Of a stretch of DNA of 15,380 nucleotides, positions 1,262-12,992 are shown in pieces. Within the stretch, counting starts at the first letter, position 1; the number at the start of each line of letters is the position of its first letter. The stretch is from NCBI GenBank assembly GCA_037381445.1, contig JARRQT010000087.1, positions 1-15,380 on the forward strand, in the 5' to 3' direction. Origin of the DNA: Calditrichia bacterium (GTDB lineage Bacteria > Calditrichota > Calditrichia > RBG-13-44-9). The translations under genes and the position numbers were made by a program. Under the pieces are notes generated by a model. The model was not told where the DNA came from. It saw nothing but the letters and a program-made list of their open reading frames with translations, and ran no database searches.

Positions 1262-1957
1262 ATGTCATACACTCCGTTGAAATCACTCTTGTTCAGCAGT
1301 ATTGGAAGAAAGGTTGTCATTGCGATCGCGGGTCTAACGTTCTTTTTCTTTCTGATATTTCATCTGCTGGGAAATCTCATCATCATTTTAGGGAGCGGGC
1401 ATCTATTTAACGCTTATTCCCATGCGCTGGTTAGTTTGGGTTACCTTCTCTATCTTGTAGAAATAGTCTTATTTGTTGCCTTCTTTTTCCATTTTATACT
1501 GGCCGCAATTATTACCCTGAAAAACAGCCAGTCCCGGCCATACGGTTACAAAATGGCCAAAAGTGCGGGTGGGCCAAGCAGGGAAACCATCTCTTCCCGA
1601 ACAATGATTTATACAGGCGTAGTGGTCCTGGTGTTTGTGGTGCTGCACGTTATCACCTTCAAATATGGTCCCGGCATTGCACAGGGTTACGTCACGACCC
1701 TCGACGGCCAAAAGGTGAGAGACCTCTATCGTCTGGTTATCGAAGTATTCAAAAACAAATGGTTTGTGATCTGGTATGTGTTTTCGATGATTTTTCTGGG
1801 GTTCCATGTGCGTCATGCATTTTGGAGCGCTTTTCAATCCCTGGGGGCCAACAACCAGCGCTGGACACCCATCCTCTTCTGGGTAGGAACATTTTTCGCC
1901 TTCTTTTTGGGAATCGGTTTCCTGCTCATTCCGTTATGGGTATACTTTGTTCTGTGA
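1262..1957 (+). CDS. sdhC: Succinate dehydrogenase/fumarate reductase cytochrome b subunit (single di-heme membrane anchor)
   Basis: SSIGRKVVIAIAGL start, five hydrophobic segments with His residues (FHLLGN, FHFI, LHVITF, FHVRHAFWSAFQSLG); directly upstream of sdhA. Confidence 0.93.
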   Translation: MSYTPLKSLLFSSIGRKVVIAIAGLTFFFFLIFHLLGNLIIILGSGHLFNAYSHALVSLGYLLYLVEIVLFVAFFFHFILAAIITLKNSQSRPYGYKMAKSAGGPSRETISSRTMIYTGVVVLVFVVLHVITFKYGPGIAQGYVTTLDGQKVRDLYRLVIEVFKNKWFVIWYVFSMIFLGFHVRHAFWSAFQSLGANNQRWTPILFWVGTFFAFFLGIGFLLIPLWVYFVL

Positions 1958-2053
1958 TTTGATCGATATCCGATTGAAATAAAAATGAAAACAGATGTGA
2001 TGCTGCCGGTTCTTGAGATGCCGGGCTGCTAAGCTAATCGAGGAGAAATTATA

Positions 2054-3997
2054 ATGATATTCAATGGAAAAATTCCCGAAGGCGATCCCCTGAACGGCCG
2101 GGTTCCGGAAGGCCCGATTGAAAAACGCTGGGAAAAATGGAAGAATGAATTGTCACTGGTCGCCCCGGCGAATAAGAAAAAGCATACCATCATTGTGGTG
2201 GGCACTGGTCTTGCCGGCGCTTCGGCGGCAGCATCCCTGGGAGAGCTTGGCTATAATATCAAGAGTTTTTGTATTCAGGATTCGCCGCGACGGGCCCACA
2301 GTATTGCCGCTCAGGGCGGGATAAATGCCGCTAAGAATTATACCAATGACGGTGACAGCGTGTGGCGGCTGTTCTATGATACTGTGAAAGGCGGTGATTT
2401 CCGGTCCCGGGAATCAAATGTCTACCGTCTGGCAGAGTTGAGTACCGAAATCATAGATCAGGCGGTGGCGCAGGGTGTGCCCTTTGCCAGGGAATATGGG
2501 GGACTTCTGGCGAACCGTTCATTTGGCGGCGCCCTGGTTTCCCGGACTTTTTACGCCCGCGGGCAGACCGGCCAGCAGTTGCTGCTAGGGGCATATGGGG
2601 CATTATTGCGGCAGATTGATTCCGGTAAGATCAGGATATTTCCACGACGTGAAATGCTCGACCTGGTCGTCATTGACGGGAAGGCCCGCGGCATCGTCAC
2701 ACGTAATCTGGTAACCGGCGAGATAGAGTCCCATGCCGGCGAGGCGGTAATCCTGGCCACGGGCGGATATTCCAATGCCTATTATCTTTCCACCAATGCA
2801 AAAAATTCCAATGCCACCGCGGCATGGCGCTGCTATAAGCGGGGCGCCTATTTTGCGAATCCCTGCTATACTCAAATCCACCCCACCTGTATTCCGGTAT
2901 CGGGGGATTATCAATCGAAACTGACTTTGATGAGCGAAAGCCTGAGAAATGACGGCCGGGTCTGGGTACCCAAAGAAAAGGGCGATGACCGCCGCCCTAC
3001 AGAAATCTCTGAAGATGAGCGGGATTATTACCTGGAACGGAGATATCCCACCTTCGGTAACCTGGTTCCCCGTGATGTGGCTTCCCGCGCCGCCAAAGCG
3101 GTATGTGATGAGGGAAGGGGTGTCGGCGAAACGGGACGCGCGGTTTATCTGGATTTTTCGGACGCCATCCGCGATAACGGGGTCGAGTACATTGAGGAGA
3201 AATACGGCAATCTTTTCGAGATGTATGAACGCATAACCGGCGAAAATCCCTATAAGGTTCCCATGCGAATATATCCTGCCCTGCACTACACCATGGGAGG
3301 TCTGTGGGTAGATTATAATTTGATGAGCAATATACCGGGGTTGTTTGTGCTTGGTGAAGCCAATTTCTCGGATCACGGCGCGAACCGTTTGGGAGCCAGC
3401 GCCCTGATGCAGGGGTTGGCAGACGGCTATTTCGTGATACCCTACACCGTGGGAGATTATATTGCCAGGGAAAAACCGGAAAAGGTGAGTGAAGATCATG
3501 ATGCCTTTAAGGAATCCGAGAAGGAAGTGAAGGAAACAACCCGGCGGCTGCTCTCGGTGAAAGGCAAGAAAACCGTGATGGAATTCCATCGGGAACTGGG
3601 GCATCTTTTGTGGGATAATGCCGGAATGTCCCGTTCCGAAAATAGCCTCAGGCATGTGCTGGAGAAGATCCCGGAGTTGAAAGAAGATTTCCGCAAGAAT
3701 ATTTTGGTGCCAGGGGAAGCGGATGACTGGAATAAATACCTTGAATATGCCGGACGGACAGCGGACTTTCTGGAATTGGGCGAGCTCATCGCCCTGGATG
3801 CGCTGAATCGTGATGAGTCCTGCGGCGCCCATTTTCGGGAGGAGCATGAGACTCCTGACGGAGAAGCCCAGCGCGATGATTCGAATTTTAGTTATGTCGC
3901 AGCCTGGGAATATGCGGGGAAGGATAAAATCCCCATTCTTCACAAAGAGCCGCTGAAATTTGAATATGTGGAGCCCAGTCAACGGAGTTACAAGTAA
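2054..3997 (+). CDS. sdhA: Succinate dehydrogenase/fumarate reductase flavoprotein subunit
   Basis: FAD-binding VVGTGLAG, covalent-FAD His motif [40 protein letters not shown] and [18 protein letters not shown] upstream. Confidence 0.97.
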
Positions 3998-4007
3998 GGA
4001 GATGATG

Positions 4008-4769
4008 ATGGCGAATAATAACATGAATCTGAAACTGCGAATCTGGCGTCAGGCGGGACCCGATAAACCGGGCAAACTCGTTGACTATACCCTGGACAAT
4101 GTTTCACCGGATATGTCATTTCTGGAAATGCTGGATGTATTAAACGAAGAACTTATGAAGAAAGGCGAAAATCCGGTAGAGTTCGAAAGTGACTGCAGGG
4201 AGGGAATATGCGGCAATTGCGGATCGGTTATCAATGGGATCCCCCATGGCGGGCAGCACCGGACCGCGTCCTGCCAGCTGCATATGCGGCATTTTAGGGA
4301 TGGTGATACCATCACCATTGAGCCGTTTCGGGCAAAGGCATTCCCGGTAATAAAAGATTTGGTAGTAGACCGCAGCGCTTTTGATCATATCCTCAAAAAA
4401 GGCGGGTATATTTCGGTAAACACCGGAAGCGCTCCCGATGCTAATCTTCTGCCTGTGGCCAGGGAAGTGGCGGATCAGGCCATGGATTCGGCAGAGTGCA
4501 TTGGTTGCGGCGCCTGCGTGGCAGCTTGTCCCAATGCCTCGGCCTCGTTATTTGTCTCTGCAAAAATATCTCACCTTGCCCGTCTTCCCCAGGGCCAGCC
4601 GGAAAGAAAGCGGCGTCTGATACGGCTGATGGAGCAAATGGATGAAGAGGGATTCGGGAACTGCTCGAATCAGGCGGAATGCGAGGCAGTGTGCCCCAAA
4701 GGGATTTCGATAGCCAATATTGCCAAAATGCGGAGAGAGTATTTTAAAGCCCTGCGCGGCGGGGAATAA
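4008..4769 (+). CDS. sdhB: Succinate dehydrogenase/fumarate reductase iron-sulfur subunit
   Basis: [10 protein letters not shown] (2Fe-2S), [12 protein letters not shown] and [12 protein letters not shown] motifs. Start moved to ATG 4008 because AAGGAG (3996-4001) overlaps the sdhA stop; ATGs at 4002 and 4005 are alternatives. Confidence 0.95.
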
Positions 4770-4824: not shown

Positions 4825-5094
4825 TTAGAACATATCTTTCAAACCTTTGCCTGGCCTGAAAACCGGAGCTTTGCGTGCCGGGATGTTGATCTTTTCACCG
4901 GTACGGGGATTGCGAGCTTCGCGTGCGGGACGCTGGATAACTTTAAATGATCCAAAACCAACTAAATTAACAGAGCCATCCTTTTTCAGTTCGTCTGTTA
5001 CTGTTTCCAGAAAAGCATCTAGGAATGCGTTGGAGTCTTTTCTGCTTTTTCCGATCTTCGTGGACAGAGCATCAACTAATTCTTTACGATTCAT
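4825..5094 (-). CDS. hup: DNA-binding protein HU
   Basis: MNRKELV start, VNLVGFGSF, ARNPRTGEKINIPARKAPVFRPGKGLK signature; AAGGAGG RBS. Confidence 0.96.
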   Translation of the reverse strand: MNRKELVDALSTKIGKSRKDSNAFLDAFLETVTDELKKDGSVNLVGFGSFKVIQRPAREARNPRTGEKINIPARKAPVFRPGKGLKDMF

Positions 5095-5289: not shown

Positions 5290-5598
5290 CTAAATATTTT
5301 TATCGAGTTTACCGCCCTGAAAAATCCCCCGGAAGTTGGGAGATTGCGTGATGCGGTCGGCAACTACACTCAGGACTTCATCTTTGTCGTAAAATTTTTC
5401 CTCGATCCGTTTGGTAATTTCTTCGATTCGTTCGGGCGTCAGGTTGGAACTGGATTTGGACAATGCTTTCGCCTCCTTGGAAAGCTCAACTTTATCGGCA
5501 TCTTTTTCTTTTTCCACCGATTTTACGTTATTGGCCTTCTTCACATTGGTGATGAAATTTAACTTACTTATTTCATTAACTTTCATTGGAGTCACCAT
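5290..5598 (-). CDS. flgM: Anti-sigma28 factor FlgM-like protein
   Basis: About 100 aa with a low-complexity N-terminus, DKVELSKEA motif, then ERIEEITKRIEEKFY...VADRI, matching the FlgM pattern D.V.lS..a...RV..IK..I..G.Y...iA.ki. The true start may be ATG 5586. Confidence 0.75.
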   Translation of the reverse strand: MVTPMKVNEISKLNFITNVKKANNVKSVEKEKDADKVELSKEAKALSKSSSNLTPERIEEITKRIEEKFYDKDEVLSVVADRITQSPNFRGIFQGGKLDKNI

Positions 5599-5604
5599 CC
5601 CTGT

Positions 5605-6018
5605 TTATATCGTTTTGTAGAATGTTTCTTGACTATTCACCTGTTTTTTGTAATTCTTCAAAAAACTCTTTCCCTGATTTGCCTGACCCATTTTTTCCTT
5701 CAGTACTAACTTCTTATATTTCATAATATCGAACGTTTTTTTATCAACTTTAGCCAGATTTTCCATTTTCTTCTGAAATTTGCCGTTTATCAGGTTCTGC
5801 TCTTCGCCGGAAAGCCCTGCATTTTCCAAATCTGACAAATGATTTTTCAAATCTGCCAGGGCTGCTATTTTCTCCTCGCGCTTTTGCAGGATTTCGTTAT
5901 ATCCGCTGAGGTCATCCTGTTCCAGTAATGGAATTCCTTTTTCGGAAAGCAGTTCAATCTCTTCGAGAATTTCAAAGGCTTCATTAATCCGGTCTTCAAT
6001 CTCTTTTGTCATATTCAC
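5605..6018 (-). CDS. Flagellar export chaperone, FliT/FlgN-like helical protein
   Basis: 137 aa, apparently all-helical, LLEQDDL...ILQKREEKIAAL pattern and C-terminal Tyr (FLKNY); lies between flaG and flgM. FliT versus FlgN cannot be resolved by eye. Confidence 0.6.
   Translation of the reverse strand: MNMTKEIEDRINEAFEILEEIELLSEKGIPLLEQDDLSGYNEILQKREEKIAALADLKNHLSDLENAGLSGEEQNLINGKFQKKMENLAKVDKKTFDIMKYKKLVLKEKMGQANQGKSFLKNYKKQVNSQETFYKTI
5726..5752 (-). promoter_or_regulatory. Internal sigma28 promoter upstream of flgM
   Basis: TAAA-N15-TTCGATAT; the extended -35 CTAAAGTT is identical to that of the flagellin 2 promoter. Confidence 0.55.
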
Positions 6019-8320: not shown

Positions 8321-9178
8321 TTATCTGAATAACTGTAACAAGTTATTCGGTGCTGCATTTGCCTGCGCTAGCTGCGTGGTGGACGTTTGCTGGAGTATCT
8401 GGAGTTTGGTTAGTTCCAGTTGCTCCTTGGCAATGTCGGCATCCACAATGCGGCTGGAAGCAGCGTCCGTGTTAGTAATGGCAACCTGTAAATTGGCTTC
8501 CTTGTAATCCAACCGTTGCATTTTAGCACCAATGTCCTGCAATTCGGAACTCACACTGGTAATCGCAGTATTCACGCTGCTCAGGAAATTGGCCATGCTG
8601 GTGGCGTCCGCCAGAGAAGCGGAATCAATTCCGTTCAGACCCAGCGCATCGGAAGTGAGATGTGTGTTGTTCAGGCTGACTGTGATGGTAGATGCGGTTG
8701 CATCATCGGTTAATCCAACCGTCCAGCTCACATTATTCAATCCGTCACTTCCCAGCAGCTGCGTTCCGTTGAATTGTGTTTCCCCGCCGATTGCCTCAAT
8801 TTCTTCCAGCATATCAGTGATTTCGTTCGCCAGCGCATCTCTTTCCGATGTGCCATAGGAACCGTTACCGGCCTGAATGAGCTTTTCCTTAATTCCCACC
8901 AGAATTTCGTTGATGTTGTGCAAACCACCTTCCGCCACTGAAAGCACATTCTTGGCTTCACCGACATTGTTCAATGCCTGGCCAAGCGAACGAGAGCGGG
9001 CGTTGAGCTTTGTGGCCAGTGTGTAACCGGCCGGATCGTCCGCCACTGAATTAATTCTTTTCCCCGTAGACAACCGTAACTGATGCGTTCCGATTTTGCT
9101 GTTGATCGTGTTCAAGGCGTTAAACGCATTGAGCGCGCCAACATTGGTGTTAATCCGAGAGCCACTGTAAAAAGCCAT
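8321..9178 (-). CDS. fliC: Flagellin (paralog 2), short D0/D1-type, 285 aa
   Basis: RINTNVGALNA, RLSTGKRINSVADDPAG, ETQFNGTQLL, IGAKMQRL, SRIVDADIAKE and QILQQ...LAQAN...LLQLFR. Confidence 0.97.
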   Translation of the reverse strand: MAFYSGSRINTNVGALNAFNALNTINSKIGTHQLRLSTGKRINSVADDPAGYTLATKLNARSRSLGQALNNVGEAKNVLSVAEGGLHNINEILVGIKEKLIQAGNGSYGTSERDALANEITDMLEEIEAIGGETQFNGTQLLGSDGLNNVSWTVGLTDDATASTITVSLNNTHLTSDALGLNGIDSASLADATSMANFLSSVNTAITSVSSELQDIGAKMQRLDYKEANLQVAITNTDAASSRIVDADIAKEQLELTKLQILQQTSTTQLAQANAAPNNLLQLFR

Positions 9179-9247: not shown

Positions 9248-9274
9248 TAATCGTCTGGTAATTTGGGAACTTTA
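9248..9274 (-). promoter_or_regulatory. Sigma28 promoter of flagellin 2
   Basis: TAAA-N15-GACGATTA versus the consensus TAAA-N15-GCCGATAA. Confidence 0.8.
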
Positions 9275-9405: not shown

Positions 9406-10260
9406 CTACCGGAACAAGCTCAGGACGCCTTGGGGGGCTGCGTTAGCCTGAGCCAATTGGACAGTCGATGTCTGCTGCAGAATTTGAAGCTTGGTCAACT
9501 CCAATTGTTCTTTGGCGATATCGGCGTCCATAATACGACTTTTTGCTGCATCCGTGTTGGTGATGGTAATCGACAGGTTCTGCTCTTTGAAATCCAGACG
9601 CGAAACTGCCGCACCAATCTTCTGCAATTCGGAACTTACGCTCGATATTGCAGAATCAACGCTACCCAGCAGTGCTGCGTTATTGGTCGAGATTGTTGCG
9701 GAATCAATACCGCTCAAACCCAGACTTGCAGAATCGAGGGCGGTACCGGTAAGATCCACAGAAAGTGTTGAAGCTGTTCCGTCATCAGTGAGACCAACAG
9801 TCCAGGACCTTGAAGAACTTAGTCCGGTCGAGCCCAGCAATTGCGTACCGTTAAACTGGGTTTCAGTTTCAATCGATCCGATTTCATCCAGCATGTCGTT
9901 GATTTCCTGGGCAAGAGCATCCCGTTCGGCGGTACCATAAGAACCGTTACCGGCCTGTATGATCTTCTCCTTGATGCCGACCAGAATTTCATTGACATTG
10001 GACAATCCGCCTTCCGCCACGGATAACACATTCTTCATCTCACCGGCATTGTTTAACGCTTGGGTCAAACTGCGCGAACGCGCTTCCAGTTTTTTCCCCA
10101 GCGTATAGCCGGCGGCGTCATCGGCAACGCTGTTGATGCGTTTGCCGGATGCCAGTCTCATCTGAATGGTACCCATTTTGGAATTAATACTGTTGAGGGC
10201 GTTGAACGCATTTAACGCGCCAACATTGGTGTTAATGCGGGATCCAGAATAAAAAGCCAT
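9406..10260 (-). CDS. fliC: Flagellin (paralog 1), short D0/D1-type, 284 aa
   Basis: Same flagellin motifs as paralog 2. Start set at ATG 10260 (MAFYSGS, identical to paralog 2, with an ACAAGGAGGT SD) instead of 10305. Confidence 0.97.
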   Translation of the reverse strand: MAFYSGSRINTNVGALNAFNALNSINSKMGTIQMRLASGKRINSVADDAAGYTLGKKLEARSRSLTQALNNAGEMKNVLSVAEGGLSNVNEILVGIKEKIIQAGNGSYGTAERDALAQEINDMLDEIGSIETETQFNGTQLLGSTGLSSSRSWTVGLTDDGTASTLSVDLTGTALDSASLGLSGIDSATISTNNAALLGSVDSAISSVSSELQKIGAAVSRLDFKEQNLSITITNTDAAKSRIMDADIAKEQLELTKLQILQQTSTVQLAQANAAPQGVLSLFR

Positions 10261-10264
10261 AACA

Positions 10265-10301
10265 ACCTCCTTGTTTTGTGGTTTTTGAGAATCCCTTCTC
10301 A
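10265..10301 (-). promoter_or_regulatory. CsrA-binding leader of flagellin 1
   Basis: TGAGAA-GGGA-TTCTCA hairpin (10301-10286) displays AGGGA; SD ACAAGGAGGT at 10274-10265. Confidence 0.7.
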
Positions 10302-10389
10302 TCATGACAGTCTGAGTAATTTGGGAAGAACAGCGACTGCCAGCCGTAACTTCCTATGTCATAGACCAGTGAAACATTTCTAATTTATA

Positions 10390-10416
10390 CTATCGGTACT
10401 TTTTATATGGACTTTA
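10390..10416 (-). promoter_or_regulatory. Sigma28 promoter of flagellin 1
   Basis: TAAA-N15-ACCGATAG, 9 nt downstream of the glycosyltransferase stop. Confidence 0.85.
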
Positions 10417-10425
10417 GGAAAATTT

Positions 10426-12183
10426 TTATGATACCGTGCTGCAATATTCAATAAGCTTTTCCAGCTGTCCTGTTTTGGCATAAAGTCCGCCGAGCAGCTT
10501 TCTGATCCGGGCTGAATGTTCCGGAAAAAGGCCCAATGCTTTATGCAATACTTCAATGGCCTTTTGAAACTCCCGGGATTTGATGTATACCGCGGCGAGT
10601 TTATAATGGGTATCCCAGATATGCCTGTTCTTTTCCAGCGCTTTCAGGAATAGATCCACCGCTGCCGATAAATTGCTTTCTTCCAGCGCCAGAGTACCCA
10701 GGCTATCTAAAATGATCTCATCTGCATACCGATTATTCACTCCCCAATCCAAAAATCTGCCGGCCAATGCCCGGTCATTCAATTTGGTTGCCAGGCCCCC
10801 TAGCATTTTTATGGCTGAAGTGGGATGGTCGAAATGATCCATTTTGTCTGCGAAGAAACTCAGCATATCAGATATCCGATCAGCGGGCCAATCAATATTC
10901 TGTATGCTGAAAATCCATTTTTCCAATAATGATGATGAAAACTTGTCCGCCGTTTTGAAATAAATAATCCCATGTTCAAGAGCGCTGGCAAAATCCTTTA
11001 AGGCATAATGGTACAGTGTCAGCCGGACTTCGATGGTTTGCGCTGAAAAGTCTTTATCACTGCTCAGTTCTGAAAAAGGGATATCTGCATTTTTCCAAAG
11101 CATTTCCAGATGGTAGATGGCTTCCTGCCAGTTGCCCGTTTTGGCATGGCATTCCGAAGCCAGGAAATAGCCGGCTCGCTGGCTGGGGGCAATTTTAAGA
11201 GAATCCGAGACATAGTGAAGCGCCTGTTCATAGTCACAGGCTTTATATAATTCTTCGGCAATGATCAATAGAGCGCTTGATACAATATTCACCGGCAATA
11301 TATTGAATTCAATGGCCTTTTTCAGATGATCGATGCCGCGTGCCTGCTCCTTCATTAATATATATGTTCTGCCAAGTTGAAAATGGGCATAGGCATTATT
11401 GGGATTGTTTTTTAGCTCCTCGCGAAGAAGGTCCAAATTCCGCTCAATTTTTTTCCGGATGATATCAGCATCCTGGGCATACCCGAGATGTTGAATAATG
11501 ACATCCAAGTTTTTAAAACGTGCCCCGGCCCGCACCAGGGAGGGCGCAATCTGTTCATGCACTTTTCCCTCGAATTGCACGCCGTCGAGTTTCCTGAATA
11601 ATCTGGGATAGGGCATATCGTGGTAGTCCTTACCGAGAACGCCCGATTCGTTACTCCGGACCTTCAACTGATATACATCGGCATCACCCGAACGGACCGC
11701 TTTCAGAACGGTGTTATGATACGGCTTGTGCAGTCTTTCATCGGCGTCCAGATAGAGAATCCAGGGGCAGGTTGTCTTGCTCAGGGCGAAATTGCGGGCA
11801 GCAGCGAAATCTTTCTTCCAATCATAATGAAAAACTTTTGCAGCATAGTCCAGGGCAATATCCACGGTTTTATCTTCACTTCCGGTGTCAACAATGATGA
11901 TTTCATCCACCAGTTCCTGGACGCTTTTTAGACAATCCGCCAGAAAGTGTGCCTCGTTTTTAACAATCATACATAAGGAGATGGATGACGGATTTTTTTC
12001 AGGGAAGATCTTCTTGAGCATTTTTTCGATTTCAGCTCCGCTCCATCCTAATAGCCCGGAAATTTCATCTACTGTTAATCTTTCATAGAAATACAGACCC
12101 AGTACCATCCTGTCTTGTGAAGACAGCTTTTTCAATTTCCCCATGAGAATATCAACCTCAGGTTTAAGATGATGCCTGTTCAA
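10426..12183 (-). CDS. GT2-family glycosyltransferase with C-terminal TPRs (probable flagellin glycosyltransferase) and an N-terminal sigma28 region-4-like domain
   Basis: SLCMIVKNE, VDTGSEDKT, DFAAARN, WILYLDADE (DxD), FEGKVHEQ, IQHLGY and KIERN, then TPR motifs (NPNNAYAHFQLGRTY). TTG start with GGAGAGG RBS. Residues ~13-60 resemble FliA region 4. Confidence 0.9.
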   Translation of the reverse strand: MNRHHLKPEVDILMGKLKKLSSQDRMVLGLYFYERLTVDEISGLLGWSGAEIEKMLKKIFPEKNPSSISLCMIVKNEAHFLADCLKSVQELVDEIIIVDTGSEDKTVDIALDYAAKVFHYDWKKDFAAARNFALSKTTCPWILYLDADERLHKPYHNTVLKAVRSGDADVYQLKVRSNESGVLGKDYHDMPYPRLFRKLDGVQFEGKVHEQIAPSLVRAGARFKNLDVIIQHLGYAQDADIIRKKIERNLDLLREELKNNPNNAYAHFQLGRTYILMKEQARGIDHLKKAIEFNILPVNIVSSALLIIAEELYKACDYEQALHYVSDSLKIAPSQRAGYFLASECHAKTGNWQEAIYHLEMLWKNADIPFSELSSDKDFSAQTIEVRLTLYHYALKDFASALEHGIIYFKTADKFSSSLLEKWIFSIQNIDWPADRISDMLSFFADKMDHFDHPTSAIKMLGGLATKLNDRALAGRFLDWGVNNRYADEIILDSLGTLALEESNLSAAVDLFLKALEKNRHIWDTHYKLAAVYIKSREFQKAIEVLHKALGLFPEHSARIRKLLGGLYAKTGQLEKLIEYCSTVS

Positions 12184-12205
12184 TTTTGCCTCTCCGGATT
12201 TCAGT

Positions 12206-12451
12206 TTAGAATCTCACGTTCAGTAAATTTTTCAGATGTCTGGCGGCCTGGATCAGGTCGGTTCTATGAAACACAACCGCAGATTGATTCTGCTCGCGCA
12301 CCCGATCAATTAATTCCAGCCGGTAAATTGTGAGGGAGGCCGGAGCCTGAATTCCCAGTTGAACTTTGTTGTTATCGATATTAATTACTTTAATGGAGAT
12401 GTTATCTCCGATTACAATGTTTTCGCCTAACTTCCTTGTTAGTACCAACAT
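12206..12451 (-). CDS. csrA: Translational regulator CsrA (FliW-binding long form)
   Basis: MLVLTRKLGENIVIGDNI...VQLGIQAP...IYRLEL, with a C-terminal extension containing EQNQSA as in FliW-paired CsrAs. Confidence 0.96.
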   Translation of the reverse strand: MLVLTRKLGENIVIGDNISIKVINIDNNKVQLGIQAPASLTIYRLELIDRVREQNQSAVVFHRTDLIQAARHLKNLLNVRF

Positions 12452-12486
12452 ATTACACCTTCCATGGTTTGAATGTTCGCATCCTG

Positions 12487-12903
12487 CTAGTTTATTGCAT
12501 AAGAGACCGGTAATTCCTCAGGTGTCAGGATGACTTGTTTCCCTTCCTTTACCGAATAATCAATAATGATAGGCCCTTTCAGGTTAACAGTCATTTTCCC
12601 ATCTTCGCCTTTCAAAGTAACCACACAGAATAAATCGGCCAGCGTTTCCTTCGAGTTCAGTTCTTTGCTTAATTTCGGGGGAAAATGCTCAAGATACTCC
12701 TTTTTCACCAAAAGCGGATTCAGCACCGGAAATCCAAATTCTTCTTTGTCCAGCGAAATCAGCCAGCGAAAAGGTTCGGAATCTTCATCATTAATAATGA
12801 TGAATTTTTTATAATCCTCAAATCCAATAATTCCCTGCGGGAAATGTATGATGTTTTCTTCCGAAACCTCTAATTCGCCAAATTGCCGGGTTACTACTTT
12901 CAT
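12487..12903 (-). CDS. fliW: Flagellar assembly factor FliW
   Basis: TRQFGELEV, IHFPQGIIGFE, PFRWLISLD, FPVLNP and MTVNLKGPIII; adjacent to csrA. Confidence 0.95.
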   Translation of the reverse strand: MKVVTRQFGELEVSEENIIHFPQGIIGFEDYKKFIIINDEDSEPFRWLISLDKEEFGFPVLNPLLVKKEYLEHFPPKLSKELNSKETLADLFCVVTLKGEDGKMTVNLKGPIIIDYSVKEGKQVILTPEELPVSYAIN

Positions 12904-12992
12904 TCAATCATTCTCCGTTTCTGTTCAAACTGAAGTTTTGCAATTCAAATGCCAGAAGGCGAATACATTCACGCCTGTAATTCAACCGTTTA

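Follow-up and report, generated by a model that had tools for sequence, protein, structure and literature searches.

A sigma28 region-4-only protein encoded beside fliW in one order of Calditrichota, a possible FlgM decoy that looks joined to a glycosyltransferase in a single assembly

In textbook accounts of flagellar regulation, FlgM is relieved by export through the finished hook. HsbA of Pseudomonas aeruginosa, a known cytoplasmic antagonist of FlgM, is a STAS-domain protein and is unrelated to sigma factors. It is reported to sequester FlgM and release FliA, and its gene is located near flgM (PMC5085249); it is phosphorylation-controlled and is not a sigma fragment. Relief of FlgM inhibition by export is likewise reported (PMC3861889). 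In the alphaproteobacterial general stress response, a sigma-like domain of PhyR that is not itself a sigma factor is described as binding the anti-sigma factor NepR and thereby freeing the sigma factor (PMC4598750). As described, PhyR mimics an ECF sigma factor and carries a receiver domain besides its sigma2- and sigma4-like subdomains.

The small protein of this study is encoded next to the fliW-csrA pair of a Calditrichia bacterium, in the window (the whole stretch of 15,380 nt that was analysed), which lies at the very beginning of contig C87 of its genome. It resembles PhyR in being a sigma-like domain without DNA-binding determinants, for which binding to an anti-sigma factor is proposed here, and it resembles HsbA in the proposed sequestration of FlgM and the location of its gene near flgM. 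Unlike PhyR, it consists of region 4 only, is derived from sigma28 and forms a single domain of 81 aa without a receiver, sensory or sigma2-like part; unlike HsbA, it is a sigma fragment. The closest likeness is to region 4 of FliA and WhiG, which gave the best sequence matches, share the fold and have FlgM-contact positions that are largely kept, but the small protein lacks regions 2 and 3, its -35-reading residues are not conserved, and its relatives are only 59 to 129 aa long. Literature searches, with most subscription journals outside their coverage, turned up no account of a protein made of region 4 alone and encoded next to fliW. The stand-alone region-4 family is new as far as the literature was searched, and it is well delimited.

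The features of the window are the following.
10426 to 12183, minus strand: joined frame of region-4 piece and GT2-TPR glycosyltransferase, open, with a TTG start
12189 to 12195, minus strand: ribosome-binding-site-like GGAGAGG before the TTG start (from sequence; P0008 is called from the same start)
11998 to 12183, minus strand: residues 1 to 62 of a stand-alone sigma28 region-4-only protein (Sigma70_r4 match, comparison with P0008, four-helix model)
11997 to 12000, minus strand: junction, where 137 bases of public contigs are absent and the sides overlap by 3 bases
10426 to 11997, minus strand: body of the flagellin-adjacent GT2-TPR glycosyltransferase (Pfam; P0153)
12206 to 12451, minus strand: csrA, copy of the flagellar cluster (Pfam CsrA)
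12487 to 12903, minus strand: fliW (Pfam)
12940 to 12954, minus strand: sigma54-type promoter-like site upstream of fliW (pattern search)
9406 to 10305 and 8321 to 9178, minus strand: flagellin genes 1 and 2 (Pfam Flagellin_N/C)
10391 to 10416, minus strand: sigma28-type site preceding flagellin gene 1 (pattern search)
9249 to 9274, minus strand: sigma28-type site preceding flagellin gene 2 (pattern search)
5727 to 5752, minus strand: sigma28-type promoter-like site ahead of flgM, located within the gene before it (pattern search)
5290 to 5586, minus strand: FlgM-like anti-sigma factor, proposed partner (sub-cut-off profile matches, C-terminal pattern, upstream sigma28-type site)

The original prediction described a sigma region-4 domain fused to the N-terminus of the glycosyltransferase. 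Within the window this description is accurate: the TTG start and the GGAGAGG at 12195 to 12189 are present 22 nt past the csrA stop, and the frame is open from the region-4 piece into the GT2 domain (residues 69 to 203), with TPRs after it (Pfam). Residues 1 to 67 match Pfam Sigma70_r4 above the cut-off (25.8 versus 24.1 bits; E 7.4e-6; profile positions 2 to 37 of 50). The two flagellins are likely substrates of the glycosyltransferase, judging by gene position only. The cluster is bordered by genes resembling succinate dehydrogenase/fumarate reductase (by eye; 1262 to 4769, plus strand) and by an HU gene (4825 to 5094, minus strand), which also lies beside the flgM-like gene in the remnant loci that were read. 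Two cluster proteins, encoded at window positions 5605 to 6018 (minus strand) and at L103:2395-2895, had no convincing family match; the latter, upstream of flgK, is retained in several flagellum-less genomes of genus g9.

Public contigs from four runs (X1 to X4) were aligned to window positions 11300 to 12800. X4 does not span the junction, and X2 and X3 represent one sample from a different study than X1. All three (X1 record 4, X2 record 5 and X3 record 10) align in two pieces, stepping from contig coordinate 442 to 577, 1390 to 1525 and 7978 to 8113, respectively, with a 3-base overlap. This corresponds to 137 extra bases between window positions 11999 and 12000, a figure derived from the coordinates of the paired alignment pieces and not from the letters of the insert. 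The X1 contig is otherwise identical to the window (0 other letters) and may be its source; the X2 and X3 contigs are about 95% identical to it. The 137 bases had no match in the metagenome contigs searched and no convincing trace elsewhere in the window's own genome. The distance from csrA to the glycosyltransferase core is 223 nt in the window, 343 to 471 nt in 15 relatives and 121 nt in L014; adding 137 to 223 gives 360 nt, which is within the range of the relatives.

The missing bases can be assigned by comparison with two protein records from a near-identical strain. P0008 is a stand-alone protein of 81 aa; up to residue 62 it differs from the window at two positions, and a 19-residue tail of its own follows. 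P0153 is a glycosyltransferase of 547 aa, 93% identical, which starts at its own Met 24 residues earlier with a basic N-terminus. The window assembly thus lacks the last 19 codons and the stop of the small gene, whose product is about 81 aa when intact, and the start and 24-residue basic N-terminus of the glycosyltransferase. Together these would account for 132 of the 137 bases, and 5 bases would separate the two genes. We conclude with high confidence that two separate genes, encoding an approximately 81-aa sigma28 region-4-only protein and a 547-aa GT2-TPR glycosyltransferase, look joined because 137 bases are missing from this assembly.

The same architecture was sought in related genomes and did not recur. 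In the best 16 orthologous glycosyltransferase loci (L002 to L017), the region-4 piece is a separate gene with its own stop in 15, is missing in L014 and is fused in none. The glycosyltransferase is an ordinary family member (132 proteins at E<=1e-100) and resembles other flagellin-adjacent GT2-TPR glycosyltransferases; among 122 homologues the region-4 profile matched the window's own protein and none of the other 121. Fused forms were found neither among proteins of near length nor among longer proteins at E<=1e-12, both of which are weak evidence. A 658-codon frame in G028 was considered as a second fusion and was rejected, since the region-4 piece of that locus is encoded by a separate frame of 99 codons that ends in a stop. 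The orthologues in L002 to L017 and P0153 start with a Lys/Arg-rich tail of about 20 to 35 residues; the glycosyltransferase of G005 lacks this tail, and G005 also lacks the small gene.

The sigma-r4/GT2/TPR fusion is therefore not supported as a biological architecture by the 16 loci, the 122 homologues or the three spanning contigs. Absence from all relatives is an outcome that the original prediction itself named as refuting the fusion. A genuine functional fusion coupling flagellin glycosylation to FlgM, or a private in-frame deletion as its weaker form, would agree with the frame that stays open across the junction, with the 585-aa protein that is on record and with a gap flanked by only a 3-base overlap, which would be below the usual assembler k-mer. 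It is nevertheless highly unlikely: the 585-aa form is recorded from one contig only, one of the three spanning contigs has the extra bases and no other difference, and the small gene persists in genomes that have lost the glycosyltransferase. Since rare variants do not survive into contigs, a sub-population could carry a true deletion, but the joined frame is more probably an assembly error. Taken separately, a private deletion in the strain or a sub-population is improbable, and a selected, functional fusion is extremely so. With the fusion unsupported, the gating of flagellin glycosylation by FlgM export, one of the roles originally suggested, is unsupported as well; the small gene persists where the glycosyltransferase and the flagellins are gone. 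The case cautions that when an in-frame domain fusion is seen only once, in a metagenome-assembled genome, a short gap can be its origin.

The model of the small protein has four helices, at residues 8 to 18, 22 to 33, 38 to 45 and 49 to 63 (pLDDT 78.5), and superposes on region 4 of WhiG and Aquifex FliA at 0.8 to 0.9 Å over 54 columns. WhiG and FliA were among the best structural matches, tied with other region-4 domains including those of ECF sigma factors (VIA against 7lq4_A: Z 10.2, rmsd 3.6, 68 aligned; against 1rp3_G: Z 9.8, rmsd 3.5, 67 aligned). Foldseek returned no match to the model at E<=0.001, and the ESM Atlas gave generic Sigma70_r4 clusters only. By sequence, the nearest solved proteins were also WhiG and FliA (hhalign, 95.8%). 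The FliA profile TIGR02479 was matched at 31 bits, versus a cut-off of 189.6, over positions 168 to 216 of 224; regions 2 and 3 are absent. The prediction of a FliA-type region-4 domain without sigma regions 2 or 3 therefore holds for a single-domain protein of 81 aa.

The family alignment comprised 66 rows, chosen by a profile that favours the conserved motif. Leu30 (66/66) and Glu34 are invariant, and the invariant core is common to three families. Recognition-helix positions 46 to 51 and 53 to 55 have entropies of 3.0 to 4.0 bits, versus 0 to 0.85 bits in FliA of the order, where the exposed residues of this helix do not vary among 30 sequences. At the counterparts of the -35 readers S224 and Q228, the family has entropies of 3.2 and 3.4 bits. 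A Lys before the first helix of the helix-turn-helix, conserved in FliA, is mostly Glu or Asp in the family, and the mean net charge of residues 37 to 58 is -1.8 versus -0.2 in FliA. The last helix has been lost in shortened members of genera g2 and g9. The original prediction that the -35-reading helix is replaced thus stood in part: the conserved reading residues are gone, but the helix itself is still predicted (residues 49 to 63) and its apolar pattern is kept.

Positions 199, 203 and 213 are reportedly the sites of FlgM-insensitive alleles in Salmonella; literature searches gave no confirmation, and these sites were not used as evidence here. For sigma28 of P. aeruginosa, the reported FlgM contacts in region 4 are L187, I191, L200, A203, L204, Y206 and L210 (PMC12784957). 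According to the same report, L204R weakens FlgM binding from 2.2 to 422 nM and two region-2 changes give 6.4 and 9.6 nM, indicating that region 4 carries most of the FlgM affinity; L204 is reported to touch neither DNA nor RNA polymerase (PMC12784957). By alignment, the seven contacts map to positions 13, 17, 26, 29, 30, 32 and 36 of the small protein, all of which lie in the part retained even by g2 and g9 members without the last helix. The L204 hot spot corresponds to the invariant Leu30. Five of the seven positions are strongly kept; position 13, the counterpart of L187, varies, and in place of Tyr206 most members have Phe. The seven are conserved above average (p ~0.004) but not above other apolar positions (p 0.11).

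The FlgM-like protein scored below the cut-offs of Pfam FlgM (19.3 versus 25 bits) and TIGR03824 (19.7 versus 40.75 bits), and a PDB sequence search with it returned no FlgM chain. Its C-terminal two-helix pattern is conserved (Ile57 in 30/30, Ile61 in 29/30 and Ala76 in 28/30), with a residue spacing matched by eye to the residues reported in PMC12784957. FlgM remains the most plausible, putative partner, as originally proposed, with the contact positions largely kept and the small gene retained beside the flgM-like gene. Other orders carry short FlgM-like frames of 55 to 65 aa with the C-terminal helices only (L101:8139-8330 and L106:7562-7735), located 1.3 to 1.9 kb downstream of a conserved fliA.

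The survey covered 86 Calditrichota genomes, 37 of the window's order (the window and 36 others) and 49 outside it. Apart from the window's own genome, 32 of 36 members of the order carry the stand-alone small gene, and it was found in none of the 49 outside, a count that leaves aside 13 weaker matches. Short-frame matches outside the order were rejected as a sigma fragment at a contig end in G072 and as an ECF piece in G085; the match in G078 contains internal stops. Four genomes of the order lack the small gene: G005 and G025 are true losses, the contig of G031 ends in csrA, and G014 is 85% complete with fliW also missing. When 1.84 billion representatives were searched with the family profile, 50 proteins scored at E<=1e-10, almost all of them 59 to 129 aa long; several short matches of this search lie outside the phylum. 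FliW has the same range, being present in 36 of the 37 genomes of the order and in none of the 49 outside; the small gene is present in 33 of the 36 FliW-bearing genomes, and in all 33 with both it lies no more than about 410 nt downstream of fliW. The csrA gene is present twice in genomes with a window-type cluster and once, away from fliW, in remnant genomes.

Nineteen genomes of the order lack a window-type flagellar cluster (15 without a flagellin match and 4 with flagellins elsewhere). FlhA had no match in 11 of the cluster-less genomes and only weak partial matches in 4. Kept among the 19 are fliW in 18, the small gene in 17 and the flgM-like gene in 17. In these remnant loci the upstream csrA copy and about 6 kb of genes downstream of the small gene have been lost, and the usual order is fliW, small gene, flgM-like gene, hup. 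The small gene lies within 1 kb of the flgM-like gene in 15 of the 19, versus more than 6 kb in flagellated genomes. G029 shows an apparent intermediate of the loss, in which a degenerate csrA-like frame still separates fliW from the small gene (L057:1216-1458). The FliA orthologue was found in 34 of the 37 genomes of the order (64 to 86% identity to the window's). In a FliA tree built from 30 of the order's 37 genomes and two outgroups, remnant genomes make up a supported g2+g9 clade and also occur in family f3 and as G003, which sits on a long branch. These scattered positions suggest that the flagellar cluster was lost at least two times, probably three or more, if it is ancestral. dN/dS of the small gene was 0.10 to 0.28 in 7 of 8 flagellum-less pairs, in four of which dS was saturated; the eighth, the close pair G024/G036, has 4 non-synonymous and 0 synonymous changes. 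The small gene almost certainly represents a conserved, order-restricted family under purifying selection, with a region-4 fold and without conserved -35-reading residues.

Retention is not universal. G025 keeps fliW, flgM-like and FliA without the small gene, and the flagellated G005 has lost it and keeps fliW, on a contig that ends before flgM. Of the 10 genomes of family f4, which belongs to another order, only one has flagellin, whereas all 10 have FliA together with a short FlgM-like match and none has the small gene, indicating that FliA and FlgM can persist without it. Across the phylum, a FliA/WhiG-type sigma factor is present in 82 of 86 genomes and flagellin in only 52. In other orders, many of the flagellated genomes have a second, more divergent FliA. 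One lineage of FliA thus seems to serve a purpose other than flagella. A second fliA-like match in G033 (C34:208794-209375) contains two internal stops.

Promoter-like sites were located with a sigma54 consensus and a sigma28 pattern that was tuned after a first search round. The sigma54-type site before fliW was present in 14/14 flagellated and 10/16 remnant loci parsed, compared with 0.1% of shuffles, and probably drives fliW, csrA, the small gene and the glycosyltransferase gene. The parsed set covers 30 of 36 fliW loci; among the others, G018 has the site and G025 does not. The site is absent from five remnant loci that have the small gene (G024, G027, G036, G033 and G034). The sigma28-type site before the flgM-like gene was present in 15/15 flagellated and 13/16 remnant loci (28/31), compared with 0.4% of shuffles. 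It lies in coding sequence in flagellated genomes and in non-coding DNA in remnants, and its survival there suggests that the FliA-FlgM loop may still be live in remnant genomes. In four loci (L156, L158, L159 and L166, from G000, G001, G008 and G012), a gene resembling ATP synthase epsilon (by eye) starts 14 nt past the end of a sigma28-type site and is a candidate non-flagellar FliA target.

We infer the expression, promoter use, partner and direction of effect of the small protein as follows. It would be made together with FliW from the sigma54-type promoter and would present to FlgM the same region-4.1 groove by which FlgM ordinarily holds FliA. By binding the C-terminal helices of FlgM it would titrate FlgM, and some FliA would be freed without FlgM export. 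The decoy would matter most in relatives that lack the export apparatus and still keep FliA and a sigma28-driven flgM. That the small protein is such a sigma mimic, and that it sets a minimum or a threshold of FliA activity that does not depend on exporting FlgM, is tentative, at slightly under an even chance. More doubtful, though possible, is the wider scheme of an order-wide FlgM decoy that arose from a duplicated, DNA-blind sigma fragment and links the sigma54 and sigma28 tiers without secretion, with decoy, FlgM, FliW and FliA surviving flagellar loss as a four-gene circuit for a non-flagellar regulon.

Other partners would explain parts of the same evidence. The position within about 410 nt of fliW in 33/33 genomes, the identical range of FliW and the single unlinked CsrA kept by remnant genomes all fit a partnership with FliW, CsrA or another operon member, for example as a flagellin stand-in that acts as a FliW sink and frees the remaining CsrA in flagellin-less cells; yet the fold is nothing like flagellin, the conserved face is the one that FlgM uses on FliA, and G005 and G025 keep fliW without the small gene, which leaves this partnership rather unlikely. 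The last helix of region 4 is part of the flap-tip pocket, and it is missing from the g2 and g9 members. This loss, and the match of invariant Leu30 to a residue reported to make no RNA polymerase contact (PMC12784957), weigh against binding to the beta-flap of RNA polymerase, or to FliA itself, by which the protein would compete with or remodel the sigma28 holoenzyme. Such a role, of much the same low likelihood as a FliW or CsrA partnership, would suit the entire four-helix fold being kept, with region 4 described as a main RNA polymerase contact via the beta-flap (PMC4598750).

It is very unlikely that the protein regulates by binding DNA through its helix-turn-helix, or that it supplies region 4 to a sigma factor split into two halves: the modelled helix-turn-helix geometry is retained in most members, but the recognition helix varies freely compared with FliA of the order and is absent from some members, and the replaced Lys and the negative charge of residues 37 to 58 point the same way. 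Losses in G005 and G025 and shortening in g2 and g9 would be expected of a functionless fliA remnant carried between retained genes, an explanation that is only remotely likely given dN/dS well below 1 in 7/8 flagellum-less pairs, the invariant core across three families and the keeping of the gene while both flanking blocks were deleted.

If the FlgM decoy reading is true, sigma mimicry would extend from ECF sigma factors and PhyR to group 3 sigma factors by way of a minimal protein of 60 to 85 aa. The family would then offer a direct test of how FliA stays active in cells that are unable to export FlgM.
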